In this document: positions 9,001 through 43,082 of the stretch, piece after piece
How positions within the stretch are numbered: the first letter of the stretch is position 1
How the letters are laid out: every line of letters starts with the position of its first letter
Notes under the pieces: generated by a model
What the model saw: only the letters and a program-made list of their open reading frames with translations
Told to the model about the DNA's origin: nothing
Database searches by the model: none
Position numbers and translations under genes: made by a program
Assembly (NCBI RefSeq): GCF_964355755.1
Contig: NC_092670.1
Location: forward strand, 920,201-984,200
Direction: 5' to 3'
Length of the DNA: 64,000 nt
DNA from: Antedon mediterranea
Lineage: Eukaryota > Animalia > Echinodermata

Positions 9001-12000
9001 ATTGCGTGTTTTACACAAAGTTACGCGCGCACGCGTATTTAAAATTTCAAAATGCGCGAAACTAATTTATAATCAACTTTCTACGCGTTTCATGTCGTTT
9101 TAAGCATGTCAAAAATTCCCACGCGTGCGCACATTTTTACGTGTGCGGTGCGCACGTAGCATTGAAAAGGTATTTTTTTCGAGTGATTTATGTTTTTCCA
9201 GCCTTTTCATGTAATTTTACCAAATTTTAAACAATTTCGACTTAAAGATACGTCATACGAGCACGTCGAATTGGACAATTTGCGCGCGTTTTTTATGAAA
9301 AGGTTAACAAATTCGTTTAAAATATGCCTTTTTTTAAACAGTCGTAATTTCTAAACTAGACGGTCAAATTTTTGTGGATGGCATATTCTGGAAGTAGATG
9401 AGTTGTAGATATCGGATCAGGTATTAATATGGCTAACCGGACATTGTGACGTCATCGTATGGCCACGCGAATATAAAATTTAGGATTTTTGTATCTTTCG
9501 TCATAGCTCATCACATTGAATAGAGCGCATCTCCACTTATCCGTTTTCCATTTTCACCCGGATTTTGATATTGTCTAGGTCAATCAACTATCTTTCGCAT
9601 GAGTTAAAATATTTTAATTTTTTTGACGTCATCATGCCTAAAAATTTAAATCACGTGTGGCATCAATTTCATCTTTACAGTAAATTTTAATCTGTTATAG
9701 CTCGTAAGAATAAAATGTGATAATCACGATTAAAACTTTTTCTGGAAGCTATTGGATTGTAGATACGAAATTATGTAAAAATGTTGCCAATCGGATGTTG
9801 TGACGTCATCATATGGCCAGTTAAATAAAAAAGGTCGTATTTCCATCTTTTGCGTCATAATTCATTACATTTAAAAGAGCGCGCATCAATATTTCACGTA
9901 TTCAAATTTCTTCTACACGCTAATACGTTGTTGCTGAGATAATTTCCTTTCGGAATTGCTACCTTCCCGTTTCATTTTAAAACCGTCAACATGTTAAAAA
10001 TTGCAATAAATAGCGGGTCCCGTAATTTCACCTATTCTACACTGTATGTGATATGGATACAGATTATACTGTGTATACTATATATGAATTTAAACAATAA
10101 AATTCAGCAATAACAACATATCATATTCTTCAGTTCAGGTCATAATGCCAACGTGAACACTTCCTTTTGTCCTCAACCTATCCCCTTAATGTTAATGTTG
10201 CACCACTTGCGCGGCGGATAACCAAACTCGTCAAAGTGACGAGTTACATGTCTAGTTGGTTATCCGCAACGAAGTTGCAGGATAACCTCTTGTGATTGTA
10301 CGAAATCATCATCATCATCATCATCATCAACTTTTTGGTTATCCGCAACGAAGTTGCAGGATAACCTCTTGTGATTGTACGAAATCATCTTTTTTTTCAT
10401 CTTCTTTCTTTCTGTATGATTTTTGTGTAACGCTTTTCTCTAAAACTTGCAAACATAACATTTTGTTAACTATGTTAACATTTTGACATTCACGTAACGT
10501 CGTCAAGCGAAGCTTTTCATGATGTTTACAATTGCGCAACGCGACGTACGCGCGATTTAACGATTTTCTCGTATTAAACATATGTCGAAAACCAAACAAC
10601 ATTTTAAAATGAAACTTTGCAAAAGTTTAATTTATATCATGCGCTAACTGTCTGTTGAAAAAAAATTGCGTGTTTTACACAAAGTTACGCGCGCACGCGC
10701 ATTTAAAATTTCAAAATGCGCAAAATTAATTTCTAATCAACTTTCTACGCGTTTCATGTCGTTTTGAGCATGTCAAAAATTCCCACGCGTGCGCACATTT
10801 TTACGTGTACGGTGCGCACGTAGCATTGAAAACGTATTTTTTTCGCGTGATTTATGTTTTTTCAGCCTTTTCTAGTAATTTTACCAAATTTTAAACAATT
10901 TCGACTTAAAGATACGTCATACGAGCACGTCGAATTGGACAATTTGCGCGCGTTTTTTATGAAAAGGTTAAAAAATTCGTTTAAAATATGCCTTTTTTTA
11001 AACAGTCGTAATTTCTAAACTAGACGGTCAAATTTTTGTGGATGACATATTCTGGAAGTAGATGAGTTGTAGATATCGGATCAGGTATTAATATGGGTAA
11101 CCGGACATTATGACGTCATCGTATGGCCACGCGAACATAAAATTTAGGATTTTTGTATCTTTCGTCATAGCTCATCACATTGAATAGAGCGCATCTCCAC
11201 TTATCCGTTTTCCATTTTCACCCCGATTTTGATATTGTCTAGGTCAATCAAGTATCTTTCGCATGAGTTAAAAATATTTTAATTTTTTTGACGTCATCGT
11301 GCCTAAAAATTTAAATCACCTGTGGCATTAATTTCATCTTTACAGTAAATTTTAATCTGTTATAGCTCGTAAGAATAAAATGTGATAATCACGATTAAAA
11401 CTTTGTCTGGAAGCTATTGGATTGTAGATACGAAATTATGTAAAAATTTTGCCAATCGGATGTTGTGACGTCATAATATGGCCAGTTAAATAAAAAAGGT
11501 CGTATTTTCATCTTTTGCGTCATAATTCATTACATTTAAAAGAGCGCGCATCAATATTTCACGTATTCAAATTTCTTCTACACGCTAATACGTTGTTGCT
11601 GAGATAATTTTCTTTCGGAATTTCTACCTTCGCGTTTCATTTTAAAACCGTCAACAAAAAATTGCAATAAATAGCGGGTCCCGTAATTTCACCTATTCTA
11701 CACTGTATGTGATATGGATACAGATTATACTGTGTATACTATATATGAATTTAAATAATAAAATTCAGCAATAACAACATATCATATTCTTCAGTTCAGG
11801 TCATAATGCCAACGTGAACGCTTCCTTTTGTCCTCAACCTATCCCCTTAATGTTAATGTTGCACCACTTGCGCGGCGGATAACCAAACTCGTCAAAGTGA
11901 CGAGTTACATGTCTAGTTATTCTTCTTCTTTCTTTCTGTATGATTTTTGTGTAACGCTTTTCTCTAAAACTTGCAAACATAACATTTCGGTAACTATGTT

Positions 12001-15000
12001 AACATTTTGACATTTATGTAACGTCGTCAAGCGAAGCTTTTCATGATGTTTACAATCGCGCAACGTGACGTACGCGCGATTTAACGATTTTCTCGTATTT
12101 AACATATGTCGAAAACCAAATAACATTTTAAAGTGAAACTTTGGAAAAGTTTAATTTATATCATGCGCTAACTTTCTGTTGAAAAAAAATTGCGTGTTTT
12201 ACACAAAGTTACGCGCGCACGCGCATTTAAAATTTCAAAATGCGCAAAATTAATTTATAATCAACTTTCTACGCGTTTCATGTCGTTTTAAGCATGTCAA
12301 AAATTCCCTCGCGTGCGCACATTTTTACGTGTGCGGTGCGCACGTAGCATTGAAAACGTATTTTTTTCACGTGATTTATGTTTTTCCAGCCTTTTCTAGT
12401 ATTTTTACCAAATTTTAAACAATTTTGACTTAAAGATACGTCATACGAGCACGTCGAATTGGACAATTTGCGCGCGTTTTTTATGAAAACGTTAAAAAAT
12501 TCGTTTAAAATATGCCTTTTTTAAAACAGTCGTAATTTCTAAACTAGACGGTCAACTTTTTGTGGATGGCATTTTCTGGAAGTAGATGAGTTGTAGATAT
12601 CGGATCAGGTATTAATATGGCTAACCGGACACTGTGACGTCATCGTATGGCCACGCATATATAAAATTTAGGATTTTGTATCTTTCGTCATAGCTCATCA
12701 CATTGAATAGAGCGCATCTCCACTTATCTGTTTTCCATTTTCACCCCGATTTTGATATTGTCTAGGTCAATCAACTATCTTTCGCATGAGTTAAAAATAT
12801 TTTAATTTTTTTGACGTCATCGTGCCTAAAAATTTAAATCACGTGTGGCATTAATTTCATCTTTACAGTAAATTTTAATCTGTTATAGCTCGTAAGAAAA
12901 AAATGTGATAATCACGATTAAAACTTTTTCTGGAAGCTATTGGATTGTAGATACGAAATTATGTAAAAATGTTGCCAATCGGATGTTGTGACGTCATCAT
13001 ATAGCCAGTTAAATAAAAAAGGTCGTATTTTCATCTTTTGCGTCATAATTCATTACATTTAAAAGAGCGCGCATCAATATTTCACGTATTCAAATTTCTT
13101 CTACACGCTAATACGTTGTTGCTGAGATAATTTCCTTTCGGAATTGCTACCTTCGCGTTTCATTTTAAAACCGTCAACATGTTAAAAATTGCAATAAATA
13201 GCGGGTCCCGTAATTTCACCTATTCTACACTGTATGTGATATGGATACAGATTATACTGTGTATACTATATATGAATTTAAATAATAAAATTCAGCAATA
13301 ACAACATATCATATTCTTAAGTTCAGGTCATAATGCCAACGTGAACACTTTCTTTTGTCCTCAACCTATTCCCTTAATGTTAATGTTGCACCACTTGCGC
13401 GGCGGATAACCAAACTCGTCAAAGTGACGAGTTACATGTCTAGTTGGTTATCCGCAACGAAGTTGCAGGATAACCTCTTGTGATTGTACGAAATCATCAT
13501 CATCATCATCATCAACTTTTTATTGGTTATCCGCAACGAAGTTGCAGGATAACCTCTTGTGATTGTACGAAATCATCAACATCTTTTTCTTAATCTTCTT
13601 TCTTTCTGTATGATTTTTGTGTAACGCTTTTCTCTAAAACTTGCAAACATAACATTTTGTTAACTATGTTAACATTTTGACATTTATGTAACGTCGTCAA
13701 GCGAAGCTTTTCATGATGTTTACAATTGCGCAACGTGACGTACGCGCGATTTAACGATTTTCTCGTATTTAACATAGCTCGACAACCAAATAACATTTCA
13801 ACTTGAAACTTTGCAAAAGTTTAATTTATATCATGCGCTAACTTTCTGTTGAAAAAAAATTGCGTGTTTTACACAAAGTTACGCGCGCACGCGCATTTAA
13901 AATTTCAAAATGCGCAAAATTAATTTAAAATCAACTTTCTACGCGTTCCATGTTGTTTTAAGCATGTCAAAAATTCCCACGCGTGCGCACATTTTTACGT
14001 GTGCGGTACGCACGTAGCATTGAAAAGGTATTTTTTTCGCGTGATTTATATTTTTCCAGCCTTTTCTAGTAATTTTACCAAATTTTAAACAATTTCGACT
14101 TAAAGATACCTCATACGAGCACGTCGAATTGGACAATTTGCGCGCGTTTTTTATGAAAAGGTTAAAAAATTCGTTTAAAATATGCCTTTTTTTAAACAGT
14201 CGTAATTTCTAAACTAGACGGTCAACTTTTTGTGGATGGCATATTCTGGAAGTAGATGAGTTGTAGATATCGGATCAGGTATTAATATGGCTAACCGGAC
14301 ATTGTGACGTCATCGTATGGCCACACGAATATAAAATTTAGGATTTTTGTATCTTTCGTCATAGCTCATCACATTGAATAGAGCGCATCTCCACTTATCC
14401 GTTTTCCATTTTCACCCCGATTTTGATATTGTCTAGGTCAATCAAGTATCTTTTGCATGAGTTAAAAATATTTTAATTTTTTTGACGTCATCATGCCTAA
14501 AAATGTAAATCACGTGTGGCATTAATTTCATCTTTACAGTAAATTTTAATCTGTTATAGCTTGTAAGAATAAAATGTGATAATCACGATTAAAACTTTTT
14601 CTGGAAGCTATTGGATTGTAGATACGGAATTATGTAAAAATGTTGCCAATCGGATGTTGTGACGTCATCATGTGGCCAGTTAAATAAAAAAGGTCGTATT
14701 TTCATCTTTTGCGTCATAATTCATTACATTTAAAAGAGCGCGCATCAATATTTCACGTATTCAAATTTCTTCTACACGCTAATACGTTGTTGCTGAGATA
14801 ATTTCCTTTCGGAATTGCTACCTTCGCGTTTCATTTTAAAACCGTAAACATGTTAAAAATTGCAATAAATAGCGGGTCCCGTAATTTCACCTATTCTATG
14901 TATGTCACTGTATGTGATAGATACAGATTATACTGTGTATACTATATATGAATTTAAATAATAAAATTCAGCAATAACAACATATCATATTCTTCAGTTC

Positions 15001-18000
15001 AGGTCATAATGCCAACGTGAACACTTCCTTTTGTCCTCAACCTATCCCCTTAATGTTAATGTTGCACCACTTGCGCGGCGCGGCGGATAACCAAACTCGT
15101 CAAAGTGACGAGTTACATGTCTAGTTCTTCTTCTTTCTTTCTGTATGATTTTTGTGTAACGCTTTTCTCTGAAACTTGCAAACATAACATTTTGTTAACT
15201 ATGTTAACATTTTGACATTTATGTAACGTCGTCAAGCGAAGCTTTTCATGATGTTTACAATTGCGCAACGTGACGTACGCGCGATTTAACGATTTTCTCG
15301 TATTTAACATATGTCGAAAACCAAATAACATTTCAACTTGAAACTTTGCAAAAGTTTAATTTATATCATGCGCTAACTTTCTGTTGAAAAAAAATTGCGT
15401 GTTTTACACAAAGTTACGCGCGCACGCGCATTTAAAATTTCAAAATGCGCGAAATTAATTTATAATCAACTTTCTACGCGTTTCATGTCGTTTTAAGCAT
15501 GTCAAAAATTCCCACGCGTGCGCACCTTTTTACGTGTGCGGTGCGCACGTAGCATTGAAAACGTATTTTTTTCGCGTGATTTATGTTTTTCCAGCCTTTT
15601 CATGTAATTTTACCAAATTTTTAACAATTTCGACTTAAAGATACGTCATACGAGCACGTCGAATTGGACAATTTGCGCGCGTTTTTTATGAAAAGGTTAA
15701 AAAATTCGTTTAAAATATGCCTTTTTTTAAACAGTCGTAATTTCTAAACTAGACGGTCAAATTTTTGTGGATGACATATTCTGGAATTAGATGAGTTTTA
15801 GATATCGGATCAGGTATTAATATGGCTAACCGGACATTGTGACGTCATCGTATGGCCACGCGAATATAAAATTTAGGATTTTTGTATCTTTCGTCATAGC
15901 TCATCACATTGAATAGAGCGCATCTCCACTTATCCGTTTTCCATTTTCACCCCGATTTTGATATTGTCTAGGTCAATCAACTATCTTTCGCATGAGTTAA
16001 AAATATTTTAATTTTTTTGACGTCATCATGCCTAAAAATTTAAATCACGTGTGGCATCAATTTCATCTTTACAGTAAATTTTAATCTGTTATAGCTCGTA
16101 AGAATAAAATGTGATAATCACGATTAAAACTTTTTCTGGAAGCTATTGGATTGTAGATACGAAATTATGTAAAAATGTTGCCAATCGGATGTTGTGACGT
16201 CATCATATGGCCAGTTAAATAAAAAAGGTCGTATTTTCATCTTTTGCGTCATAATTCATTACATTTAAAAGAGCGCGCATCAATATTTCACGTATTCAAA
16301 TTTCTTCTACACGCTAATACGTTGTTGCTGAGATAATTACCTTTCGGAATTTCTACCTTCGCGTTTCATTTTAAAACCGTCAACATGTTAAAAATTGCAA
16401 TAAATAGCGGGTCCCGTAATTTCACCTATTCTACACTGTATGTGATATGGATACAGATTATACTGTGTATACTATATATGAATTTAAATAATAAAATTCA
16501 GCAATAACAACATATCATATTCTTCAGTTCAGGTCATAATGCCAACGTGAACACTTCTTTTTGTCCTCAACCTATCCCCTTTATTTTAATGTTGCACCAC
16601 TTGCGCGGCGGATAACCAAACTCGTCAAAGTGACGAGTTACATGTCTAGTTCTTCTTTCTTTCTGTATGATTTTTGTGTAACGCTTTTCTCCAAAACTCG
16701 CAAACATAACATTTTGGTAACTATCTTAACATATTGACATTTACGTAACGTCGTCAAGCGAAGCTTTTCATGACGTTTACAATTGCGCAACGTGACTTAC
16801 GCGCGATTTAACGATTTTGTCGTATTTAACATAGCTCAACAACAAAATAACATTTCAACTTGAAACTTTGCAAAAGTTTAATTTATATCATGCGCTAACT
16901 TTCTGTTGAAAAAAAATTGCGTGTTATACACAAAGTTACGGGTGCACGCGCATTTAAAATTTCAAAATGCGCAAAATTAATTTATAATCAACTTTCTACG
17001 CGTTTCATGTCGTTTTAAGCATGTCAAAAATTCCCACGCGTGCGCACATTTTTACGTGTGCGGTGCGCACGTAGAATTGAAAACGTAATTTTTTCGCGTG
17101 ATTTATGTTTTTTCAGCCTTTTCTAGTAATTTTACCAAATTTTAAACAATTTTGACTTAAAGATACGTCATACGAGCACGTCGAATTGGCCAATTTGCGC
17201 GCGTTTTTTATGAAAAGGTTAAAAAATTCGTTTAAAATATGACTTTTTTTAAACAGTCGTAATTTCTAAACTAGACGGTCAAATTTTTGTGGATGACATT
17301 TTCTAGAATTAGATGAGTTGTAGATATCGGATCAGGTATTAATATGGCTAACCGGACATTGTGACGTCATCGTATGGCCACGCGAATATAAAATTTAGGA
17401 TTTTTGTATCTTTCGTCATAGCTCATCACATTGAATAGAGCGCATCTCCACTTATCCGTTTTCCATTTTCACCCCGATTTTGATATTGTCTAGGTCAATC
17501 AACTATCTTTCGCATGAGTTAAAAATATTTTAATTTTTTTGACGTCATCATGCCTAAAAATTTAAATCACGTGTGGCATCAATTTCATCTTTACAGTAAA
17601 TTTTAATCTGTTATAGCTCGTAAGAATAAAATTTGATAATCACGATTAAAACTTTTTCTGGAAGCTATTGGATTGTAGATACGAAATTATGTAAAAATGT
17701 TGCCAATCGGATGTTGTGACGTCATCATATGGCCAGTTAAATAAAAAAGGTCGTATTTTCATCTTTTGCGTCATAATTCATTACATTTAAAAGAGCGCGC
17801 ATCAATTTTTCACGTATTCAAATTTCTTCTACACGCTAATACGTTGTTGCTGAGATAATTTCCTTTCGGAATTGCTACCTTCCCGTTTCATTTTAAAACC
17901 GTCAACATGTTAAAAATTGCAATAAATAGCGGGTCCCGTAAGTTCACATATTCTACACTGTATGTGATATGGATACAGATTATACTGTGTATACTATATA

Positions 18001-19699
18001 TGAATTTAAATAATAAAATTCAGCAATAACAACAGATCATATTCTTCAGTTCAGGTCATAATGCCAACGTGAACACTTCCTTTTGTCCTCAACCTATCCC
18101 CTTAATGTTAATGTTGCACCACTTGCGCGGCGGATAACCAAACTCGTCAAAGTGACGAGTTACATGTCTAGTTATTCTTCTTCTTTCTTTCTGTATGATT
18201 TTTGTGTAACGCTTTTCTCCAAAACTCGCAAACATAACATTTCGGTAACTATCTTAACATATTGACATTTACGTAACGTCGTCAAGCGAAGCTTTTCATG
18301 ACGTTTACAATTGCGCAACGTGACTTACGCGCGATTTAACGGTTTTGTCGTATTTAACATAGGTCGACAACCAAATAACATTTCAACTTGAAACTTTGCA
18401 AAAGTTTAATTTATATCATGCGCTAACTTTCTGTTGAAAAAAAATTGCGTGTTTTACACAAAGTTACGCGCGCACGCGCATTTAAAATTTCAAAATGCGC
18501 AAAATTAATTTATAATCAACTTTCTACGCGTTTCATGTCGTTTTAAGCATGTCAAAAATTCCCACGCGTGCGCACATTTTTACGTGTGCGGTGCGCACGT
18601 AGCATTGAAAACGTATTTTTTTCGCGTGATTTATGTTTTTCCAGCCTTTTCTAGTAATTTTACCAAATTTTAAACAATTTCGACTTAAAGATACGTCATA
18701 CGAGCACGTCGAATTGGACAATTTGCGCGCGTTTTTTATGAAAAGGTTAAAAAATTCGTTTAAAATATGCCATTTTTAAAACAGTCGTAATTTCTAAACT
18801 AGACGGTCAAATTTTTGTGGATGACATATTCTAGAAGTAGATGAGTTGTAGATATCGGATCAGGTATTAATATGACTAACCGGACATTATGACGTCATCG
18901 TATGGTCACGCGAATATAAAATTTAGGATTTTTGTATCTTTCGTCATAGCTCATCACATTGAATAGAGCGCATCTCCACTTATCCGTTTTCCATTTTCAC
19001 CCCGATTTTGATATTGTGTAGGTCAATCAACTATCTTTCGCATGAGTTAAAAATATTTTAATTTTTTTGACGTCATCATGCCTAAAAATTTAAATCACGT
19101 GTGGCATCAATTTCATCTTTACAGTAAATTTTAATCTGTTATAGCTCGTAAGAATAAAATGTGATAATCACGATTAAAACTTTTACTGGAAGCTATTGGA
19201 TTGTAGATACGAAATTATGTAAAAGTGTTGCCAATCGGATGTTGTGACGTCATCATATGGCCAGTTAAATAAAAAAGGTCGTATTTTCATCTTTTGCGTC
19301 ATAATTCATTACATTTAAAAGAGCGCGCATCAATATTTCACGTATTCAAATTTCTTCTACACGCTAATACGTTGTTGCTGAGATAATTTTCTTTCGGAAT
19401 TGCTAACTTCGCGTTTCATTTTAAAACCGTCAACATGTTAAAAATTGCAATAAATAGCGGGTCCAGTAATTTCACCTATTCTACACTGTATGTGATATGG
19501 ATACAGATTATACTGTGTATACTATATATGAATTTAAATAATAAAATTCAGCAATAACAACATATCATATTCTTCAGTTCAGGTCATAATGCCAACGTGA
19601 ACACTTCCTTTTGTCCTCAACCTATCCCTTTAATGTTAATGTTGCACCACTTGCGCGGCGGATAACCAAACTCGTCAAAGTGACGAGTTACATGTCTAG
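1..19699 (+). mobile_element. Nested cluster of ~1.55-1.6 kb non-autonomous Helitron2/Helentron-like (HINE/DINE-1-type) elements; continues beyond the left edge of the window
   Basis: 13 near-identical bodies end in subTIR GCGGATAACC + hairpin CTCGTCA-AAG-TGACGAG + TTACATGTCTAG (last G at 1256, 2792, 4335, 5931, 6964, 8731, 10255, 11916, 13443, 15124, 16649, 18171, 19699). 8 heads TTGGTTATCCGC-AACGAAGTT-GCAGGATAACC...(CAT)n start near 4347 (divergent variant), 6973, 7040, 7122, 10256, 10335, 13444, 13523. No TSD, no RepHel ORF. The subTIR + 5' inverted repeat + microsatellite + 3' stem-loop layout matches the HINE/DINE-1 architecture. Confidence 0.85.
4347..5931 (+). mobile_element. Complete divergent subfamily copy of the HINE-like element, inserted in the linker of another copy
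   Basis: Head TTAGTTATCCGC-ATTCA-GCGGATAACT, 3' subTIR GCGGATAACT, same hairpin and CTAG end; body alignable to but clearly diverged from the neighbouring copies. Confidence 0.85.
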
Positions 19700-20423
19700 T
19701 TAATTTTACTATTTTACTGATCAGTAGGCCTAGTGGCAACACACTTATTAAGGGTGCTGTCAACTAATAAACTAGACATACAATTAAAACGTTATAAACC
19801 ACATTTAACCACAACACACCAAAAAGAAATATATATCATGTACACTCAGCGATACATACATAGACATGTTATTTTTTAGTAGATGTAATTAGGGTACATC
19901 ATAATATATTTTACATATTTAATTTTGAAATGATGTACAGTCGTTATTTTAGTAATGATGGCATTTAAATTATATAAACAATTGAATTGATAAAAATAAC
20001 ATGACCATTTGTTTTGCAAATTGAATGTATCGTGTACATAGATATTTTAATTTAAAATCAAAATGAAATTACTGAAATGAAAATGTTGTGGGTAGGCCCA
20101 TCAGATATTTAATTAAAATAAATAAATGGTAATTTGAAGAAAAACAAAGTTTTAAATTAAAAGGAGACGGAATCTCCCAGAGCCATAATATAAAAAAAAA
20201 GCAATTCCGCCCTCTATGTGAGCTAGCTAAATGACTGGAGAAAAGGCGACAGAGAAGCGGCGGCGGAACACTCGTTGGCGGTCTAGGCCTCCTACAGTAG
20301 GCACAATATACTTGAATTATGCTACCTAAATTTCCACTTTATCAGTGAAGATTGTCAATTTGGATTCAGCCAGTTCGAAATATAATAGTTGAACTGTGCT
20401 CAGATCGTCATAAATACTTACAG

Positions 20424-22745
20424 ATGGCTTTTGACGGTAAGATAATGACAATCATTGGGAGTAATTATAATTCTAAAATAGTTTATTTAAGACTGACTGA
20501 ATAAAAAGGGGATTTCCCATCTCCAATGACCGGCATATAGCACGTACAGAGTACAGTGCTACATAATACTAGAATAGGTGGAACAATACATAATTTCATT
20601 TTAGGCCTACACTGTAGCAGAAGGAATTGGATTTAGCTATTTCCTAGATGTCTGCATTTTATGAGTCATATTAAGGCTATATCATGTTTTATATTAATTC
20701 AGCCAATTATTTTTTATAAGGAATGTTGATTAAAAATAAATTATAAATAAAAAAAAAAAAAAACCAAAATGTTCACTGTAGCTTGCTAGACCTAGTTAGT
20801 AATATACCAGGGAGTTTTATTTGACAACTCCCTGGTATTACTACTCAAGTAGTAAGAAAAAGGAAATAAACTTAAACTAGGTCATGGGAACTTTAAAAAG
20901 GGATCTTTTTTGGTTACACAGGTTATTATGATTTTTACATAACAAGCGATGACTATGATTGGGAGACCAGAATACTGCGGAAATTAGAAGCAAAGGGTCT
21001 CCGTGGTTACCACAGAAACACTTTTACCCTTGGAAGTTTGAAATCTAGTAGCAGACTCAATGGGATCAAGAACAGTAAAGTCACCATAATTGGTTTCGTA
21101 CCACTATCAAAAACAAAATCAAGCGTTGACAAATATCTCGCTAGTTTGTCGTTTGAATTTAAAGGAGAGTTGATATGCGTGCAGATAACAGAAGATTCTG
21201 TAATTCCTGACGAGTATGCAGGTCTTGTACATTACCATGGTTCTGATGAGGAAGGCCTCTGTTGTCGAATTGAAGAAGTTATAAAGAGTCTTCCTTCAGG
21301 TTGGTCCATTAAGAATATATATTTTTTGAAAAAAAAATTGGCAAAGCTTCATAAATTATTTTTCTTTTTGACCTTATGTTTTCAAGTTTCTTTGAGAATC
21401 CGTTCATCTTTGAATGCATTGTAAATATGTATATATTGGTATGAAATTATTGAATTCGAAAATGTTATCTTCTGAACTCTTTGGCTAATAATGTTGATTT
21501 TTTTACATCTTTTTAAGGAGGAGACAATTTTTCAATGGAAACTGGTATGTACTATTCATTACAGTATAATATGAACTATTCATTTAGTACACATGACATG
21601 CCTCTCGACTCCATACACAGCTGTTGAGTAATTCTGCAAATGCTCATATAATATTCTAAGCTGCATGTCAGTTAAGTGGCACAAAATGAAAGGGGACCAC
21701 CATGTGAAGACTAATATGATCTTCCCATCTCTATTTAAACATAGTTTGCCATTTATATAAATATTACTCAAAATGTTGCTGTATTGAGCTGTATTTTCAC
21801 AGATTAGTGATACAATAAAGTGATAAAATTACATTGTATAAATACCTGTATGTGATTATATCTAAACATTGTCTTAGGGGATGTCGTTGATTCAAGTCGT
21901 CCACAACCATTAGGTAAGACTACTGTTTAAAATGTACATGTGTTATGAATCATCATCAAAGGCCGCAGCCACAGTGCAGCACACTGGGAGCAGATGCCCA
22001 TCTTTTTTTAATGTGTGCCATGTGCATTGTATGTACACATAGGCTTTACAAAGACAAGAGTAAAGCGTCATGTTTTAAAGATAGAAGCAATGTGGCCGGC
22101 ACAGCTCTTTCTTTATCCCTTTCACGTGCTAATCCCTTTCACGTGCTAATCCCTTACCATTATGTCATATTATGTAAAAAAATTCTTTATATCAAACCAA
22201 TGGTAACAAATTCCTTTCACAAATAACTTCTTCAGAAGAAATTGTTTGAGAAAGGAACAACTAAACCATCAAGAAAGTATTTACCACCTATTTTTGTATT
22301 TTTTACAATTGGTTTGATATAAAGAATTGTATACAAGTTGTTTACAAACCGGATGAACATTTACAGTCATTATCGCTCTCACTCACAATAATATGAAATT
22401 CCAAAATCTTGGCTCCTCCTTCTATTTTTGGCAATAGCTTATGTATATTGTTTTTCTGTTCTAGAAGACTTTGGACCACTCACAGACCTCCGTATTGCCG
22501 AGTTGGCAAGAGAGCTTGGTAATGATTGGTCCATGTTGGCAACGTATTTAGGGATTTCACTCGCTCAACAACAAGATTTACGGCGTGATCATCAAATCTG
22601 TAGTCGGGAACGCAATCAAGAAATGTTGGTTTTATGGCGCAAGAGAGATTCATGCTCTCCATCAGAGAAACTACGTACTCTAATGACTGCATTGGAAAAA
22701 AGTGATAGAACAGATTTAAAAGACATTGTTAGTCTATGGCAATGA
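20424..22745 (+). CDS. TIR-like domain + C-terminal DEATH domain protein, 244 aa, 5 exons
   Basis: Exons 20424-20436, 20922-21299, 21518-21544, 21878-21913, 22465-22745; all introns GT-AG and phase 1; total 735 nt. N-terminus MAFDGYYDFYITSDDYDWETRILRKLEAKGLRGYHRNTFTLG...IKNSKVTIIGF resembles TIR box1/BB-loop. The last exon LTDLRIAELARELGNDWSMLATYLGIS...QEMLVLWRKR...LMTALEKSDRTDL is a typical death domain. Confidence 0.8.
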
Positions 22746-24022
22746 TGGAACAAAGTGGAAGAACGGATTTAAAAGACATGGTTAGTCTATGGCAATGAAA
22801 GCTATGAATCAACAACATTAAAAAACCATAATCACTTTTTATACCATACCTACCTGAATGTCTGGACTATAACTGGAGGTCTCCTTTATAAATAAGAAGA
22901 GCAGTACCCTATAATGTCTTGACTCATTTTAATTGAGGTTGAGGTTAGGACTACTTATGTTATAGTATACTGTATTTATGACATTTTAATATGAATACCA
23001 GTATGGCTATATGATTCAGCAACCAATAATTGACTAGATAACAAGTGTAGGTTATAATGGCACATGTTTCCTACCAATGCTTAGTGGTATTCACTAATAA
23101 CTAAGGAGAACAATTTTTTGTACACTTTAAGTGTGAGCGCCTACCACTTCAGGAAAATCCTTTAATTAAATTGGTTTAAAACAGGAATGCAGTTTCTCAC
23201 TTTTGGTGTCATTTGGTCCATGATTGGTGTCATTCTCTATGGACCTAATAGGTCCATGATTGGTGTCATCCACAACGTTCAGATTGTCTAAATTCCATCC
23301 AGTTTTTTTTGTGTTACCATTTTCAAAGATATGAAGCTGGTAACTCATATTTAATTTTAAAGACCTGCTTGTGGACATCGGGGACCACCTACTAATTAAT
23401 TTTAAATCTTTTAAACATAGTATTAAGAAAAATATACTGAAATTTAATTAATTAATTTGAAACGATAAGATGAGGAAATCTGCGAGAATGAGAAAATATT
23501 TTTTATGCAATTTTAATCCTTTTTAAATATTTTAAAAATATTTAATTACTTGTTTGTATTCCTTTGTGGAGATTTTCTCAACTGTTATTTTTGTTATAAC
23601 ATTTAGGTAATTTAATAATAATAATAATAATAAATGAAAACTTATATAGCGCCGGTATCCTCCACCCATGTGGCGCTCATTGATTTACATTTGTTATGTA
23701 TGTATGTATGTTTGTTTTTGTTTTCTATATAGCGAAATAAATGAATATGAAATATATCATATCCAATGTATGTAAAGGTTTAATCAGATTTCAATTTAAC
23801 ATGATAAAGATACTTTAATTAATGTTGAGGTATCCTTACTTGTAAATTTCAAGATACTTACTTAGATATAGTCAGTATAGTATTTTGTAATATTACTGTG
23901 ACTTGTTTACTACATATTAAATGTAACCATTCTTAGTATGTCATCTAAATAAATGATAAATTGAGTAGATACTTGTGTTGTTTATAGATTTCATTACAAA
24001 TAATTTACTATAAAATATCAAG

Positions 24023-27000
24023 TTAGTTTGTGGCAGACTTTCTTTGTTTTTTTCCTTGAGATTTTCTCAATTTTTCTTTGTTTTGTTTTTGGTCTTCTTT
24101 CATCTTCTTTACAAGTGTTTGTAGCTAGAAAAGGAAATCAATGACGAAAAAATAATTTAAAAATAAAATCAACTATAATAATAATAATATTTATATACTG
24201 TAGCGCCCTTTTCATTTTTCCTTTTTATTTACTGAACTTAAACATTTTATAATTGAAAAAATTTTGAATTGAAAAAATATATTTTATATTTGATGTTGAA
24301 ATTTGTGCGTTTTATTGTAAGATGATGTAATCCATCTCCTTCTTTGTTAATTGCCCCATGAGAGATGAATAAAGATATATACTCATACTGATAGCATTTT
24401 AAGATATAGATAATCTATGTGTACATTACACACACTTACCGACTTCCTGGACTTTTTCTTAACAAGTTCTTTATCAGTTGTGTCCATCTCATTGTCTCTG
24501 TCGCTCCAATTATGCGTCATTTCATCCCATTCAAAATCAACTGGAGATGTTTCTTCTAAACGGTTATTATTATGATTGTTTTTCACCTCTGGATTCGAGT
24601 CCTTTGTTGACAAGTATTTACCATTTGTTTGAGATAATCTATTAGACTTCTTTAATTTCTTTTGTGATTTATCTTTAATGTCCGTTTCAGAAGCCGATCT
24701 CTTTTGAACAGGAATTTCTGTTTCAGATGGAGTTACCTTTTCTATAGTTGTTTCAGCAACATTTTCTTTCTCTATAATATTTTCTGATATGCCTTGGATT
24801 GGTTTGACAGAAGTTGACGGAATATCTTGTACTTGCGTAGATGTGGAAGGAACACTTATTTTATTCCGTAAAGAAAATTGCTCAGCATCAATGTAATAAC
24901 TTTCTTCTGCGTTAATTTCTCTTTTTTCATCCGCATTTCTATAGAAATAAACATTTATTTAAAAAAAAATTTAATAAAAATAATTTATTTGGAAGCTACA
25001 CTCTTAAAACAGTGACACACTTCTTGAATGAAGGTGCGTCTAGAGTAATACAAATAAAAGAAAAGTGATTTAACGATAGGTCTATTTACAAGAAAACTAA
25101 ATTATTTACAAAATATAATACAGGGTTAAAAACAAATATTACTTTCCCTTCTATTTTTCCACAAATAAAGAAATTCAATATTAGGTGTGCACTTTACCCT
25201 TCCCTCATACAGACACCCAATCATTTCTTAGTAAACATTATTTATCATTTATTTATTCAACTCACTGTATAGAGGGTGCTGTTACTGTTCGTAATCTATG
25301 CCAAGTGTACTCAACAAACATCGATTGCTCCATTAAACGATTCATTCGTGAGAAATGTCTCTCTAAAACAAAATTGAAATCATGGTAAAATCATTTTTCT
25401 AGGTTTCCGAATCAAATAATTAATATTCAAAATGGGTATAATATTCTTTCAATATTAATAAAGTGATATAATTGTTGAATATTGCTATAGTTAACGTACG
25501 AGTGTAAGGTAACAAGCCTTCAAGACTCTCTGTAATGTTGACACACTCCAAAAGCTGGGCCTGTGAAAACTGACTGAGCACCGTGTTCACTACAGCTTGG
25601 GCTACATGACAGTGCTTAGAGTTGGTGTTCCACTGAACGGCAAACTTCAGTAATGCATCTAAAGAAAAACAATTGAAAGTTAAGCACTGTTTACACTATC
25701 AAACTAGTGCCCAAATATGGTAGTAATATGATGTCATCGTGTCCATATGAGCACATCACATTTTTGTTGTCACATACAGTTTGGTAGTGTAGACAATAGA
25801 AATCACAATGTAATGCTATATTTAGAACTTGATGGATGGATTCAATAAAAATGGAAACAGAGATTATGCACTTAATTACCTGTATGGTATTTATAATATA
25901 AGAAAGGAAAGGTTTTGATAGATCTATTTCAAAATATTATGTTAGTCTTACCTATTTGATCAAGTCTGAGTTTTGCAATAATATTTGCAAGACATGCTTT
26001 GCCATCGGATTCATTTAACATCCCTGCAGAAATAAATAAATTTATCAGTGTTTGTGATCAAAGCAATAAAGCTTACTTAGACTGTCTCACTCAATATTTC
26101 AATCTTTTTCTTATAATTATATCATGTTAAGAAATAAAAGATGGCAGACGACTAATGTTTCAAACAAGTGCATGCATGTTAATGTTTTAATGTTTGTATC
26201 GCACACAAAAATGATCAAAATGACGGCAACCAAAACTACGTAATTAAGTCCATTAAATACCTTTTAAAATATTAAGAAGTCTAAATGGTTGTTCCAACGT
26301 TAGAGCCAACCCGATTGCTTTCTTGAAATTTTTACCAATAATCATGTTTGATAGTTGCTGTAGTCTGCGAAAAAAACAAATACAACAATATATTAAATTG
26401 TTTAGCATTCTACAAAATTCTATCATAGAAGAAAATATGTTTAAAAAAAAGTTACCTAATGTTTAATTCATACTTCAACACATCAATGATCCATGTACTA
26501 ACTAAAATTGTAATAAAATTGAGCTTTAAAAATAAAAACAGAGTGTCTCACTTGATAACTTGATCCTCTTCTTTTGATTGGTTCTCTTCCCATTCCCTTT
26601 CTGTTACATCCTACGCACAAACAGTTTAAAATATTATTTAATAACAATAATAATATATCCTGGATTTATATACGCTGAACATTATTACCCCAGACATTTG
26701 TTTTTGGATCAAACACATATGGAAACATACTCCCATCAAATGCAGCTAGTAATCAGCGCAAAGCTGTGTCTTTATCTAACCGGGTACCCATTTATACATT
26801 TGGTTGGAGAGAGGCAAACATAATTAAAGTATCTTGCCTAGGATACAAGCAACGTGACGAGAGTTGGATTCAAACCACGATCAGTAGTCCAACTTCCAAC
26901 ACACTGCACCACATGCCCTTATTTATATTGGTTTATACAAGTCTATAAAATCACTAGCAACATCGGTGAAAATGTCACCCAATTTGATGTAAATACATTC

Positions 27001-30000
27001 AATTCTCTGTACTGTATCACCATATATGGTATTACCTGTGCAGTATCATAGGCAAGTTCTGTCATGCAGTGTCATATATGTATCACATGTGATGTCTGTA
27101 ATATGTTATGGCCTATTATTAGAAACAAAGACAATACTGATAATCGGCTAAAATATGTTTTCTCAACACTACCTTATCTTACAATGGTATGTAAACAGTG
27201 CATATTTCTAAGATTTCTAACCTTCCAGAAAGCAATGACAGAGTCTGCCCCTCCCGTAGCAACAGTATCTTCTGATGAATTGACGGTAAGTGCCCAGAGC
27301 TTGTCGCTATGTTCATCGTAAGTTGTAAGACATTCGTTATCTTTGATTGACCAAATCTTTAAAAGTCCATCTGATCCACTGTAAATAAAACATGACAAGA
27401 AATATTTTATAATTTTTTAAATCTGAATGAAACAAGAAAGAAACAACTCACCCAAGTTATAAATGCTATATTTACAAAGATAAATTACAAAAAAACACTT
27501 TAAAATGATACTTTTACTTTTAAGTTTAGGCATGTGTTCCTGATCCAGTAATTTTTTAATAGAATACAACTTTTAAAATGAAAGAATTACAAAAATTACC
27601 TGGACAATAACTGCATTCCTCTTGTAAGGAAGGCGACTCGTAAAACTGAAGTATCATGTCCTTGAAAAGTCTGCAATGATAAAAGAAAATATTCTAGATA
27701 ACAGGGCATGATATAACAGGACTATTGCATGCTATAACAGGCCTAGAGCGTGATATAACAGGACTATTGCGTGATATAACAGGCCTATTGCTTGATATAA
27801 CAGGCCTAAGGCGTGATATAACAGGCCTAAGGTGTAACATAACAGGCCTAGGGTGTGATATAACAGGACTAGAGCGTGATATAACAGGACTATTGCGTGA
27901 TATAACAGGACTATTGTGTGATATAACAGGACTATTGCGTGATATAACAGGCTTAAGGTGTGTTATAACAGGCCCAGAGCGTGATATAACAGGCCAAGTG
28001 CATTGCATACAATTTGGAGGCCAGACTACCACCAATTTTGCCTACTGACTTCAATGAATTTTATTATTTCGGTAACTAACCTTAACACAACTAAAATCTG
28101 TAATTGACCAGATCTTTATTGTGCCATCAGCTGAGCTAGTGGCTACAACCTGATCTGCTGGAGAGAACTGAACACACCAGATGCTTCTCTTGTGACCTCG
28201 AAAGGTTCCCAAAAATGTGTGGTTCTCCAAATTCCAAAGCTTAGCAGTTTTGTCAAGAGAGGCAGTCACCAGCAGTTTATCATTGGGTGCCACGGCGACG
28301 CTGTTGATGTCCTATAAATTTATAAAAATCAAATATTATTTATAGAAGTTATTGATTATTTATAGAAAAAAATTGTAATTAAGGTTTTATTTTGGGTAGA
28401 AAAAATACATTTTGACTTGACCGGATGCTTTAAGCTCTGTCTACACTATCAAACTATGTAATAATGGACATGACAATGTCATATCACTACCATATTTGGG
28501 GACATTTTTTTTGTGATATAAAGTGTGATGGTGTAGACGGAGCTTTAGAAATTCACCACAAGCTTTTCAATTTGATGTCACAACAAATACATTGACATGT
28601 ACATTTACATTCACATACAATTGAAGCAAAGATGTATTAATGTGTTTGATTAGGTTACCTTTTCGTGAGCTCGGTGTGTAAAGTTAACTGCCAGGTGTTG
28701 TGGTGAATTACTTGGTTTTAGGTTTTCTGGAATATTCCAAACTTTCACAGTGCAGTCTTCACTGCCAGACACAATGAAGTTACCCGACAACCTATTTTAA
28801 AAAGCAGTGGGTAAAGCACAGGCACATTCAACATTTTATTTGTCCAAAGGGGAATTCATGTTGACATACTATTGCTCAAAATTAATATGTTAGTACCACG
28901 GAAAAAGACAATAATATTTGAGAGCTACAAAATTACTCTGATAAACAATGAAAGTCATACAGCTAGTTCAAAATGATTTTAAATTATGAAAATGTTTTAC
29001 CTACCTAGACAAAGCAATTGCTCCTACTGAGTGGGTATGACCAAATGCAACTCCTATGCACTCAAACTTCTGCTCAGTGTTCATTTTCCAAAGCCTAACT
29101 GTATTATCCTATGAGATGTTAGAAAAAAAGACAGATTTCTAGAGTGTGAGTAACCATGCAGGAAAAAACTATTTGTAGGTTAACAAAAGTGGAGTGTTTA
29201 AGTCTGTTTCAATATCATTGTTTTTTGTCAACTTTTTTCACAATTCAGTTTTACACTGCAACAAAATTAAGTTATGATTATTGATGAATTTTTGAATAAA
29301 GATATCTTTATAGTTATTGAAAATTATGGTAATAAATCCAAGCACATTGAAAGAGAATAAATTATTTATAAGTATTTACAAGAATATAGTGAACTCCTTT
29401 ACTTTACCTTAGAGCTACTTGCCATAGTCTTCTTATCGTTAAATACATCAACAGACAACACAATGTCTACAATCAAATGATAACAATAAAACAAAATGTT
29501 ATTAAGTCTTGAAATGAATGATTGCAAAGTTATGTTATCAACATATCAAAGAACTCGTACATACCTGTGTGACCTCGCAAAATTTGACAGTTCAGAGTTG
29601 AAATGTCATAAACCTTGACATATTCACTGTTTGTTGCTACGACGAGGTGAGAATCATCAGAACCAGCAAACTTTACATCTAGAACTTCATCATTAAATCC
29701 AACAAACTAAAAGTAGAAAAACACAGTAAAATAATTAAAAAGTTAGTGATTGTTAATCAGAAAATAGGTAGGTCATATATCATGTGTACAACTGGTATGG
29801 CAAATGATGACTAAAACACCTCCCTACTAACATACTTAGCTGTTAGGACCAATTTACACAGACGAGCAGTGTGCCCACAAAGAGGATGTATATATCCTCA
29901 AAGGAAACCAGCCGTCCACTCCATGCTTTGTGTAAATGGTCATAAGGAATAACATAGATTCTATATTTTTATTACCGTTACCGCTCATCTGTGTAAATTG

Positions 30001-33000
30001 GCCTTAAGTGAGCTGGAATATTTGTTTGTAACAATCTGCCCAATAAATAATCAAATTGTTATTGTCATAATCTGTAACACATACTACTGACCTGTTTATG
30101 CAAATCACCACCATCAACATTGTAAAAAAGAATATGATGATCATAGGTGACTAGCATTATCTGACCAATAGCTGGACACAATTCTGCACATGTGATCACA
30201 CTGGTTAATTCGCCATTCTCACCACGAACTGGTATCGTCGTGGCAACCGTTGTCTGTTGATAAACTACCTGACCATTTACAGAATCAATTCCTCGAAGGT
30301 ACCCTGATTTTAAAGAAATATACATTAATAAAATGTTTTAGAAGAGTTAATGCATGTTATCCAGGCATACATTATGGGAATTGGACTCTTCCATTAATAT
30401 TGATATATTTATATATATATATGATATGATGATATAAATATATAAATATTCATACTAAAACACGTTTGAATTACCGAGTGATCCACCAATCATCACTACA
30501 GGATTATTGCAGGAAAAGCCAAGTCTCTCTTGACAATCTGGTGGTATCCAAAAAGCACTCTCAACCACCTAAAAAAAAGTAAACATTTAATTATATACAG
30601 GGACTAATAACCATTGCCATAAGTCTTTGTACGTATGAACTTCAAAATAACAATGTGAATGATGGCTGCATTATATTTTGAGTGTTATACAGTTGCTGAG
30701 CACCTTACCTCCATTACAGGGATGGTGTTGATTGGTTCAGTTGTTTCTACATTCCATATTACCAAAACTTTGTCTCTTCCACCAGAAACCATTCTGTGTC
30801 CATCCGAAGAGAAATCTAAACTTGTGACCGTTCCATAATGGGTCTCTAAGCCCACCTTCAACCTGAAATTACCGTTTTACATTAAAATAATTCATTTATT
30901 CACATGTCTTTAGTCATGGTTTAAAAAAAATTAAAGTACATAAATGATGGTAAGGATCCTGCATAAAGAAGTTTCTGTTTTTGCAGAACCTATTTACATA
31001 AATCATAAAAATAAAACACAACATACGGTAAATAAAATAAAAGGGAGAAAGAAATGTTGTTTCCTAACACATTGCTTATAATTATAGCATTTATATTTAC
31101 ATTCATAAACTTATAAAGAAACTTACTTGCTATTTTGTAGATCCCAAACATATATAAAGGATCCAGCACAAGAAAACAACAGTAATTTCTCAATATTCGG
31201 ATGAAACTTCAGATAACTATGAACAAACAATGTATAAAGTAAGTTATTTGCTAGGCCTAGCTGGATACATGTGTATCCAGCTAGGCCTAGCTGGATACAT
31301 GTGTATCCTATATGAATTTAAAGCAAGGCTCAGCATACTTTACAAGCCACGACACTGGGTTACGCATGTTAACTACCAAAACACAGTTCCACTTTTATTT
31401 ATTTATTTCTTTATTTCTTTTTGTTCCGAATTTAATGGTATTGTATCCAGATTAGAACCAAGTATACTGGGTTTGAAATGTAAACACCATAACATTGGAC
31501 AATTATAACAATTTAACTAGGTTATTGATAATAAAATAATGTACAGTATTCACACATACCTTACAACTGAGTGACTACCCTTTAAGTTGTGTGTGCAGTA
31601 CTGTTGTACTATGTCCCAAATTTTAATTGTGTGGTCACCACTGCCAGTGGCTAAGAGTGTGGAGGTTGCATCAAATGCCATACTGACAATCGGGGCTGTG
31701 TGAATTGCCTTAGTAAATAATTACAACGAAAGTGGTATTCATTTCATATGCATATATTATCATTATTTCATAGCATATTATAATACAAGCAGCTACTAGA
31801 CAAGTTGTTCACAAAGTTGTAAAAACTATTTTCAGCTAGATCCCTGCTAGAAATATAACTCTTTCAAACTATCCAAGTGTAATAAATTATCATTCCTAAC
31901 AAATACAGTAGCATAGTGTAGAATAGATGTTTTGATTTAAGAAACCATGTATAATTATTATAAGAACAATCAGGAACATTCCAGTATGCTATTAAGTATA
32001 AAGAACGATCTAGAAGGATAGGAACATCTTGTATATAAAGAGATGTAAAACGATTGTAAGGGTGTTGGATATTCGATTGTAAAAGTTATTGTAAAGCTGT
32101 TGTTTAAAGTGCTTACTGGATTGTTGAAAGTTGAAGTTGATTGAAATTAAAGCTTTGTTTTGAGTTATTTTACAACTTTGTGGATTTTGTGTTTATACTT
32201 TTATATCACAATGGAGTTCCTAAATATTTTCAACAGCTCGGAAACATACGTAAGAGTAGTTCGTGACACCAATCCTAACTTGCCTACTTTGTTTAAGGAT
32301 GCAAATGTGTATTGCATAGATTGATGATGAAGTTTAAATAATATCATAAATCCAGATCATTTGCAAAACACAATATACCTTCCAAGTGCGGACACATGTC
32401 TCTTCCTTCCAATCCCACTGACGAATAAGAAGACTCCTATAGGCAATCACTACAATCTATTTTTAGAAGAAATAAAATCAGGTACTATTCTATTTTGCAA
32501 TTAAATCTACGGGAATAGAGAGATTGGTAGAACAATTGAATTAACACATAAAGTCTTTCCTCATTATAAGTCCGTCCTCATCTAAGTTTGTCCTCATCTA
32601 AATTCTCCCTAAATAAAAGCTGGTCAGCTTACCTGATCATCTTGACTGACACTAAAACAAGTCACTTCATCATCATCCTGTAGAAATAACAATACAATAA
32701 AAGGTTAAAACAGAAATGGTTCAGTTTGAGGTGACATTCATGGTTTTCATGCCAATCACAAAGATTTCTGGCCGATGGGATTCCTATGTTAAACTTATTG
32801 ACAATGCCATTTATATTGAGTCCATCATGATTTTAGATTTTATGTCATAACGATGATGCAGTTTTCCTCCTCTGTAGACCTTTACTGACCTGTTTTAGAG
32901 AATGTAGAACTTTGCCAGATGTGGCTTCTAATATTTTGACTGCTTCCCCGCAAGTACAGAAGATATACCGACCATCCTTAGATATTTCTACCTTGCCACC

Positions 33001-40819: not shown

Positions 40820-42835
40820 TTATCTATCATTACGAGATGAACGGCTTGTGGACTGACCATTTGGCCAGGTGTCATCTGTCTCACTGGAATTATAATCATT
40901 ATCAAGCAATAATTTGGTCAAGTTATCTTGGTCTGTGGTCAAGTTATCTTGGTCTGTGCTCAAGTTATCTTGATCCGTACTAGAGAAGTCATTACTAAAA
41001 GCATCTAAAAAATCTTCGTCATCGATGCTTGAGTCAGACAGAGATACGTTGGTAAATGGCGCCCAACTTGATTCATCCGAACTAGAAGCAGCCAGCGCAT
41101 CAACAAGTTCTTCAATTGTGTTTCTGGAGAGGATAGGTTCAGTGGATAGCACGGAAGCACTTTGTTGTTTACTTTTCACTTTCCCACTTCCAGGATTGGT
41201 CTCCGATGACGAACCTCTACGAGCAGAAATTCTTGATGATCTGCGCACGTTAACAATCATAACATTTCTATCTTCCTGGTTTTCAGATTCAAAAGACAAC
41301 AAATCGACTTCGCTGGAAGTGTTCATCCTATCTGGTTGAGGGTTACCAGCATCTAATCGGGGACTACTATTGACTTGATTGCTAGTTGCTTGATTCAGGT
41401 TGACAGTTTCTTCTTGTACCGCTTGACATGTTGGTGTGTCATTGTTTAACATTATCTCTGATGATGACCCTCCTTCTATATTTTCTACTGCACTACTAAA
41501 AACTACGTCAGTAGTCAAGGATCCACTGCTAAAAGATCTGTTCATCTCGGAATAGAATGACTCATCTCCAGAGGTTATTGGTGTGCTATCAAAACCAGAC
41601 AACTGAAGAGTTGACGTATCTGAAAACGATGATGATATCTCCGATTCATTATTATCGGATGACCAAATTAGGGGAGACCTACTACGACTTCTTGAAATAC
41701 TGGTGTCAAAAAGTGATGATCTACTTTCGCTTCTAATCTGTCTTAATCGTTGTCGTATACCTCTTAACAAGGGATTGGAATCATGTCGTCCTCGTCTGCG
41801 TGAATCATGTCGTCCTTGTCTGCGTCTATTACTTTGTTCATTGCGATTGTTATTGTGGAAATCATCAGATCTTCTACGATTTGGACCACTTGGAGAATAC
41901 CAAGGCGATAGAGGGCTCCCTGGTGGTGAAATTGAAGGTGACCTATCTGACGTTTGATTAGGAGCACTTGGTGAAAACCAGGGCATTGGAGGGCTCTCCC
42001 TCCTTGACATTGGAGAAATGGAATGGGTTCTCGACCTCCGAAGTCTTCTGTGACGTTCTAACTCTTTAACTCGTTTTTCTAAGTTTGACAATTCAGTTGA
42101 CACTGTCTGATAGTTGTCTTCTACTTCTGTAAAATAAAAAAAAAGACAGAGAGCTTAATTTTTGGACTAAATTTTCTTGTACTGTATCATTTAAAGAGGG
42201 CCACTTAACATCAGATAACCCACTGGGCTAAACTGGAAGGGTTACCCTCTTTAAAGATGGTGAAATCTATTTTTTTTGGTCAATTTAGTAAAGTAGTCTA
42301 AAGCAATAAAAAAGAAATAGTACCTACTTTGTAGTTTAACCTTCAATTCTGACATACAGTTATGTTCTCTGAGTTTGCCAAGAGGAAACATCAGATCACA
42401 TCCCTTGTCACATTTTGTCAATCGATGACAACATTCATTCTCATGTTCACTTAAATGTTTGCGTAATACTTCTATGTTACATTCATTGTTTTTACACTTA
42501 ACCATTGAATACTCGCAAACATCTATGTGATTGTTGTTATAGGTTTCCAACTGGGAGGTATATACACAACCAGTTTCAGCGTTCTCACAGCGTACTTGTA
42601 ATCTGTTTATCATGTTGCATAATATTGGAAGAACTGGCTTTAGACGCGATGAATGTAAATATGCTCGACAGTTTGGACAGCTTCTATGGTTGCGAAGCCA
42701 CGTAGAGATGCAGACTTTACAGAAGACGTGTTGACAGGGGCTTACCATGGGATCATCCAGCACACAGCAACAAACGCAACAGATCAAATCAGGATCGGGG
42801 GCAGTGACAAAACGATGTACTTCAAACCTCCCCAT
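40820..42835 (-). CDS. RING (C3HC4) + TRAF-type zinc-finger E3 ligase-like protein (RNF151/RNF41-like N-terminus) with a long Ser/Arg-rich and acidic disordered tail, 604 aa
   Basis: Exons 42328-42835 and 40820-42126 joined by a phase-1 GT-AG intron, 1815 nt. MGRFEVHRFVTAPDPDLICCVCCCVLDDPMVSPCQHVFCKVCISTWLRNHRSCPNCR, then C-x6-C...H-x3-C TRAF-like fingers and a short coiled coil. Confidence 0.88.
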
Positions 42836-43082
42836 ATTGATGTTTCTGTTTGGACTTTGCTCTGAGAACAAATCAACATTTAAATTCTTTAATTAAATAA
42901 TATTAACAATAAATATGAATAAGTATTTTCAGTTTCATATAAAAATTTTGTTTTGTTATTGTTAACGTTTATATACGAATTCTGACAAAAAAGGATAATA
43001 TTTAAAAAAATACAATTACAATGCAAGAAAATAGAAATGATAAATGTAAAAGGTCATAGTTTCAAGGCAGATGGAGCTTTAA

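Follow-up and report, generated by a model that had tools for sequence, protein, structure and literature searches.

Antedon mediterranea, a crinoid, carries a small gene whose predicted product places a TIR domain before a death domain, the reverse of the order found in MyD88. Is this protein a relative of MyD88, an analogue assembled from other parts, or something else, and what could it do? The gene lies on the plus strand of a 64,000-nucleotide stretch of contig NC_092670.1 (positions 920,201 to 984,200), referred to here as the window, and all coordinates below are those of the window. The original prediction, made from the sequence alone, had described the gene as a 'reverse MyD88'.

Gene structure, transcripts and surroundings

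The gene product is a protein of 244 residues with the layout TIR-linker-death domain, encoded by five exons that join into one open frame. All five exons have AG/GT ends, and all four introns are in phase 1. This structure, including the symmetric micro-exons of 27 and 36 nt, had been proposed in the original prediction, and it is borne out by the annotation: the model is identical, letter for letter, to RefSeq isoform X1 (P0002; XP_071953492.1), which the source database names as an uncharacterised protein of Antedon mediterranea. Isoform X2 (P0001) is spliced to a second acceptor, which lies 3 nt further along, and is one residue shorter. The parts of the gene are as follows.

20280..20423 (at least), plus strand: 5' untranslated part of exon 1, in an unbroken run-X1 contig from 20280; contains in-frame stops and one upstream ATG
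20424..20436, plus strand: coding part of exon 1 (13 nt), the start codon and four further codons, ending in a phase-1 donor; joint to 20922 in run X1
20922..21299, plus strand: exon 2 (378 nt, phase 1-1), the entire divergent TIR, residues 6-130; identified by profile, AlphaFold, Foldseek and VIA-align
21518..21544, plus strand: exon 3, symmetric micro-exon (27 nt), acidic linker; both joints in run X1
21878..21913, plus strand: exon 4, symmetric micro-exon (36 nt), linker; both joints in run X1
22465..22745, plus strand: coding part of exon 5 (281 nt), death domain (approximately residues 154-244) and stop; a second acceptor at 22468 gives isoform X2
22746..23460 (at least), plus strand: 3' UTR, in a run-X1 contig that extends to 23460; starts within a 53-bp tandem duplication

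The duplication just mentioned (22693-22798, 90% alike) repeats the end of exon 5, including the stop codon.

Four sequencing runs (X1-X4) were compared, of which X2, X3 and X4 represent one sample. None of the five runs that cover the stretch is recorded as RNA, and X1 is RNA by our guess. Contigs of X1 bridge all four introns at the predicted sites, with one contig per joint, and several intron bins show little or no coverage in this run; runs X2-X4 display none of the joints, their contigs continuing through the introns. As X1 also skips the intron at 24124-24440 of the neighbouring minus-strand gene, it fits RNA better than a retrocopy. The predicted splicing is therefore seen in one probable RNA run, where the link between exon 2 and exon 5 is made by overlapping contigs, no single listed contig spanning both.

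The ATG at 20424 is likely to be the start codon, because in-frame stops lie upstream of it within the transcribed stretch. An upstream ORF of nine codons shares the frame of the main ORF; it begins at the ATG at 20319 and ends at the stop at 20346-20348. In a second allele, present in runs X1, X3 and X4, this stop is lost and a new one appears at 20340-20342, two codons earlier, so that the upstream ORF stays terminated in both alleles; an N-terminal extension from 20319 was ruled out on these grounds. In the X1 contig, 50 letters that match nothing in the window precede position 20280, and could reflect either an allelic difference or a non-coding exon located upstream, beyond the window. 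When the X1 allele is compared with the window, one difference is found in approximately 735 coding bases (the final base of exon 3, within the linker) and seven to nine in approximately 859 UTR bases (Fisher p 0.025-0.076 against coding), which provides a weak hint of constraint on the coding part.

No second TIR or death-domain exon was found in the window by tblastn, and the neighbouring genes are non-immune.

24383-33108, minus strand: 3' exons of a WD40 gene of the Utp13/TBL3 type, whose product has a long acidic tail; the gene converges from the right on the TIR-death gene
36939-37250, plus strand: ankyrin-repeat exon
40823-42892, minus strand: RING/TRAF-zinc-finger gene with a long Ser/Arg-rich tail
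53563-53634, minus strand: tRNA-like match
54510-54794, minus strand: Ras-family exon

The left flank (1-19700) is occupied by a head-to-tail array of an element of approximately 1.5 kb, which ends some 580 bp before the transcribed 5' UTR. Twelve copies of an identical 45-nt end recur in it at a spacing of 1522-2629 bp, and the units carry a hairpin with a 9-bp stem shortly before CTAG (z -2.3); this unit end resembles a 3' end of the Helitron/Helentron type. In all four runs the depth over the array is very high, which suggests that the element is present in many copies genome-wide.

The TIR and death domains

Exon 2 had been assigned to the TIR family by eye. Alone, it matches TIR_2 with an E of 0.013, under the Pfam cut-off; a family profile built from nine homologous domains, however, matches the TIRs of TLR15, TLR2 and TLR3 significantly (E 2.3e-7 to 1.4e-5). 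Up to E 10, 18 of the 20 matches of this profile are TIR-bearing TLR, TRR-2, IL-1RAcP or TIR-STING chains. None of the 20 is a chain of a cytosolic adaptor (MyD88, MAL, TRIF, TRAM or SARM1), an absence which, like that of IRAK and Pelle from the sequence matches, is still compatible with remote homology.

The AlphaFold model of exon 2 calculated on an alignment of 18 native homologs had a pLDDT of 85.8 and a pTM of 0.80, while the single-sequence model (pLDDT 44.9, no Foldseek match at E 0.001) was uninformative. With the alignment-based model, Foldseek returned 49 matches within an E of 0.001, led by the TIR of Hydra TRR-2 (E 8.4e-6, TM 0.78), and exon 2 matches solved TIR structures with the flavodoxin-like alpha/beta fold, SARM1 and C. 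elegans TIR-1 among them. The best VIA-align superposition was with MAL (Z 15.5, rmsd 2.1, 122 aligned), tied with TRR-2 (Z 15.1) and the MyD88 TIR assembly (Z 14.8). SEFIR structures rank well under the TIRs (Z 11.0 and 10.7), and the protein does not match SEFIR (PF08357) at E up to 10; PADLOC and NCBIfam gave no matches. Family profile and fold thus confirm that exon 2 is a TIR domain. Because MAL, TRR-2 and MyD88 tie, the fold cannot choose between a receptor and an adaptor TIR, and it is the sequence that favours a TLR-like receptor origin. Such an origin would suit a TIR contained whole in one exon, given that most sea-urchin TLRs are single-exon genes (PMC3367398).

A further claim, that the TIR lacks the glutamate of the WCxxE segment, also stands. 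The equivalent segment is V73-D74-K75-Y76-L77; in the profile, K75-Y76-L77 aligns with K-Y-E of TLR2, which puts Leu77 at the position of the catalytic Glu, and an ungapped register puts Tyr76 there instead. None of the 22 aligned domains of the clade described below has a Glu in this column. A weak doubt persists, since model confidence around the site is low (pLDDT 64-69) and Asp74 is kept in all three members of the TIR subgroup to which the query belongs. Human signalling adaptor TIRs are likewise without the catalytic Glu (PMC11745336). In the BB-loop, Leu41-Gly42 aligns with Pro-Gly of TLR2, and Leu41 replaces the proline, a residue that in the TRIF filament is buried in the interface (PMC11745336). 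Among the 22 clade domains this position is occupied by Pro in 10 and by Leu in 8, and Leu is also present in two of the three NLR-fused TIRs that cover it.

Exon 5, predicted to encode a death domain, matches Pfam Death (PF00531) with 44.7 bits (cut-off 22.6; E 1.5e-11). Its best sequence matches among solved structures are PIDD (E 1.9e-8), THOC1, ankyrins and RIPK1, followed by FADD and RAIDD, and none of the 19 matches at E up to 10 is MyD88, IRAK, Pelle or Tube. An Atlas structure search, with predicted models on both sides, placed ankyrin-like and PIDD clusters first (TM 0.87-0.91). Exon 5 is a death domain of the PIDD/ankyrin type.

No transmembrane stretch was found in the 244-residue protein (highest 19-residue hydropathy 0.85), and a pattern scan of it showed neither a RHIM nor a TRAF6-binding motif; the TIR and the death domain are therefore the only evident handles. 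Two candidate identities were rejected: a TLR/IL-1R receptor, by the start codon five residues before the TIR, the upstream in-frame stops and the lack of a transmembrane helix, and membership of the TRIF/TICAM family, by the negative outcome of the same scan for RHIM and TRAF6-binding patterns.

A clade of TIR domains in crinoids

A full HMMER search with exon 2 of 1.84 billion representative proteins (E up to 0.001) gave ten matches: the query, eight proteins from crinoids or hemichordates, and one protein with Ig repeats. The latter (P0005, 4294 aa) does not match the family profile and was dropped as a chance match. Six of the nine non-self matches carry TIR_2 matches below the cut-off. 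When a clade profile was applied to proteins of 243-2000 aa, 7991 candidates were scored and 16 of them matched, five belonging to Antedon and 11 to Anneissia japonica. Both searches combined yield 19 non-self relatives, two of them from a hemichordate, and one relative, P0014, exceeds the TIR_2 cut-off. In word-index searches, neither exon 2 (220-2000 aa) nor the whole protein (134-427 aa) retrieved anything other than the query protein. The homologs recovered by these non-exhaustive searches include no sea urchin, starfish or amphioxus protein.

The partner domains in the 19 relatives are diverse: four have NACHT(-LRR), five are TRIM-like (B-box, RING or NHL), two have a weak DED before the TIR, one is kinase-like, one has a CARD (Saccoglossus), two are tandem-TIR proteins and four show no other Pfam domain. 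None has a death domain, and the closest relative, Anneissia P0003 (a partial model, 47% identity over 131 aa), aligns over the TIR alone, so that the TIR-death fusion is observed in a single species. A tree of 21 TIR domains, built without two isoforms that were near-duplicates and without two domains that were short and partial, pairs the query with P0003 (87/78) and separates it from a 16-member crinoid group that contains the NLR- and TRIM-fused TIRs, this split being weakly supported. The query sits on a long branch, with 19-47% identity to its relatives; its identity to the three full-length TIRs found on NACHT proteins, which fall on a separate branch, is 25-28%. We conclude that the TIR of this gene, as judged from sequence, belongs to a crinoid-expanded clade that is newly recognised here. 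The phase 1 of all four introns of this gene and the many partner domains would be consistent with exon shuffling of a TIR module.

Several members of the clade deserve mention in their own right. P0008, P0015, P0017 and P0023 are crinoid NACHT(-LRR) proteins, three of the four from Antedon mediterranea, with a divergent TIR before the NACHT that is missed or scored under the cut-off in Pfam; by their sequences, they are animal TIR-NLRs that lack the catalytic Glu and had gone unannotated. P0010, P0019, P0020, P0021 and P0024 are TRIM-like Anneissia proteins in which a TIR of this clade stands at the N-terminus; their other domains are RING, B-box, filamin and NHL. P0009 (Saccoglossus LOC102801105) is a TIR-CARD protein, and the TIR-only P0011 has a nearby accession. 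Since the clade lies mostly under the Pfam cut-off, the RefSeq TIR-NLR, TIR-TRIM and DED-TIR proteins are annotated without a TIR. TIR shuffling in invertebrate deuterostomes was known already; what appears to be new is the TIR-death gene and this hidden crinoid TIR clade.

Proposed function and relation to known systems

We propose that the gene product is a putative soluble, non-enzymatic scaffold adaptor that would connect TIR-bearing sensors to death-domain signalling and that arose independently of MyD88, a reading to which we give a probability of approximately 0.5. A TLR-like TIR exon would have become a mobile phase 1-1 module in crinoids and been fused to many sensor and effector domains, and in this gene to a PIDD/ankyrin-type death-domain exon. 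Upon oligomerisation of a sensor carrying a TIR of the same clade (TIR-NACHT-LRR or TIR-TRIM), or of a TLR, the adaptor could join through TIR-TIR contacts, and its clustered death domains might then recruit partners of the PIDD/RAIDD/FADD/RIPK1 class, leading to caspases or NF-kB. Partners of this class would be the likeliest downstream, rather than IRAK4/Pelle. The protein would operate in the manner of MyD88 or ASC, with two homotypic modules and a short linker, and be a member of neither family. Homotypic pairing with the NLR-fused TIRs is weakened by their 25-28% identity to the query and their separate branch, and the replacement of the BB-loop Pro by Leu41 also speaks against an adaptor, although Leu is found there in 8 of the 22 clade domains. 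A broader extension of this proposal, which we regard as doubtful, is a private innate-immune circuit of crinoids in which TIR-NLRs and TIR-TRIMs sense and the TIR-death protein serves as an ASC-like hub towards a PIDDosome- or ripoptosome-type complex. If it were true, an animal TIR-NLR pathway would signal by scaffolding and not by NAD+ cleavage, and the hemichordate TIR-CARD would be a parallel invention.

The same BB-loop residue is central to the main rival, a decoy or feedback brake that would bind TIR assemblies or death-domain complexes and cap them, its altered loop and a death domain unsuited to Myddosome kinases providing the logic. Leu41 and the long branch with low identities would suit such a role, and amphioxus offers precedents in bbtTIRA and bbtTIRC, two TIR adaptors that inhibit and whose induction depends on NF-kB (PMC6043800). 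Yet both domains seem intact and properly folded, Leu is frequent at this position across the clade, NLR-fused TIRs included, and the known inhibitory variants, among them amphioxus CIKS2, work through the lack of a death domain (PMC11087794). We consider a decoy possible but less likely than the adaptor. That the protein is instead a functional stand-in for MyD88, binding TLR/IL-1R TIRs and recruiting IRAK4/Pelle with its domains swapped, seems unlikely: it has the domain types and size of MyD88, the MyD88 TIR assembly shares the top rank in fold, the TIR sequence resembles those of TLRs and MyD88 clusters head the Atlas ranking by whole-protein features (0.87, a value at the level of a lead), but neither the 19 death-domain matches (MyD88, IRAK, Pelle or Tube) nor the 20 TIR profile matches (MyD88 or MAL) include the expected relatives, and the BB-loop proline is replaced.

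That the architecture is seen in one species raises another alternative, namely a young shuffling product that is transcribed and has little or no selected function. Three word-index searches and one full HMMER search found no relative of the same architecture, and the gene stands among housekeeping neighbours next to a repeat array, with no paralog cluster in the window. A frame open across five exons, accurate micro-exon splicing and alleles nearly free of coding differences argue against it, as does a TIR at 47% identity in a second crinoid species, and no more than two crinoid proteomes are represented among the matches; we hold this explanation to be quite improbable. Least credible is an enzymatic TIR with NADase activity, activated by death-domain-driven clustering in the manner of SARM1. 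The SARM1 and TIR-1 fold matches, the Asp74 kept in the three-member subgroup and the uncertain register near the site would allow for it; against it stand the catalytic column, which holds no Glu in any of the 22 domains, the Tyr76 that the ungapped register offers, and the need of TIR NADase activity for the catalytic Glu (PMC8295901).

Should the scaffold adaptor reading be correct, the protein would represent a small hub for signalling by invertebrate deuterostome NLRs that have no CARD or PYD, and would offer a natural way to ask whether Myddosome-type assembly depends on the order of the domains.

In the literature examined, mostly open-access, we found neither this gene nor its TIR clade described, nor a crinoid protein in which a TIR precedes a death domain; in PMC12909245, 'TIR-DEATH' is the name of a MyD88 ortholog. 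The protein shares the TIR fold with the SARM1, TIR-STING and TeTIR NADases, but lacks the catalytic Glu and the SAM, STING and WD40/TPR parts; TeTIRs also sit on NACHT proteins (bioRxiv 10.64898/2026.09.21.753143). With the shuffled TIR proteins of amphioxus (TIR-NACHT, TIR-SAM, Death-TIR, bbtTIRA and bbtTIRC) it has in common a lineage-specific TIR shuffling in an invertebrate deuterostome. Such shuffling is documented, with amphioxus TIR-NACHT and Death-TIR as examples (PMC2575513, PMC2858798). The protein differs in that no amphioxus homologs were found and that the TIR-then-death order was not met in the amphioxus literature examined. The Saccoglossus protein LOC102801105 shows a parallel layout: its TIR belongs to the same clade (33% over 103 aa) and precedes a death-fold domain, which is a CARD in place of the death domain; as the protein has no similarity to the query after the TIR, it is a separate fusion. 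The amphioxus proteins bbtTIRB and bbtTIRC reportedly carry a death domain.

ASC, RAIDD/CRADD and FADD are two-module death-fold adaptors, and the protein resembles them as a small bipartite adaptor with a C-terminal death-fold domain, the death domains of RAIDD and FADD being among the weaker sequence matches of exon 5; their N-terminal module is a PYD, CARD or DED, whereas here it is a TIR. Like MyD88, it is soluble and of similar size, and comprises one TIR without the catalytic Glu and one death domain joined by a short linker. Unlike MyD88, in which the order is death domain-linker-TIR, it has TIR-linker-death domain; its closest sequences are TLR TIRs and PIDD/ankyrin death domains, and its BB-loop proline is replaced. 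Measures of kinship with MyD88 differ, as the sequence matches point to TLRs and PIDD, but MyD88 ties for the best fold and tops the Atlas features. Of the 'reverse MyD88' description, then, the domain order stands, and a kinship finds no support in sequence, the TIR being TLR-like and the death domain PIDD/ankyrin-like. Our verdict is that the gene product is probably an analogue of MyD88 rather than one of its relatives: a MyD88-like connector of TIR and death domain that seems to have been assembled anew, with other parts and with the domain order reversed.
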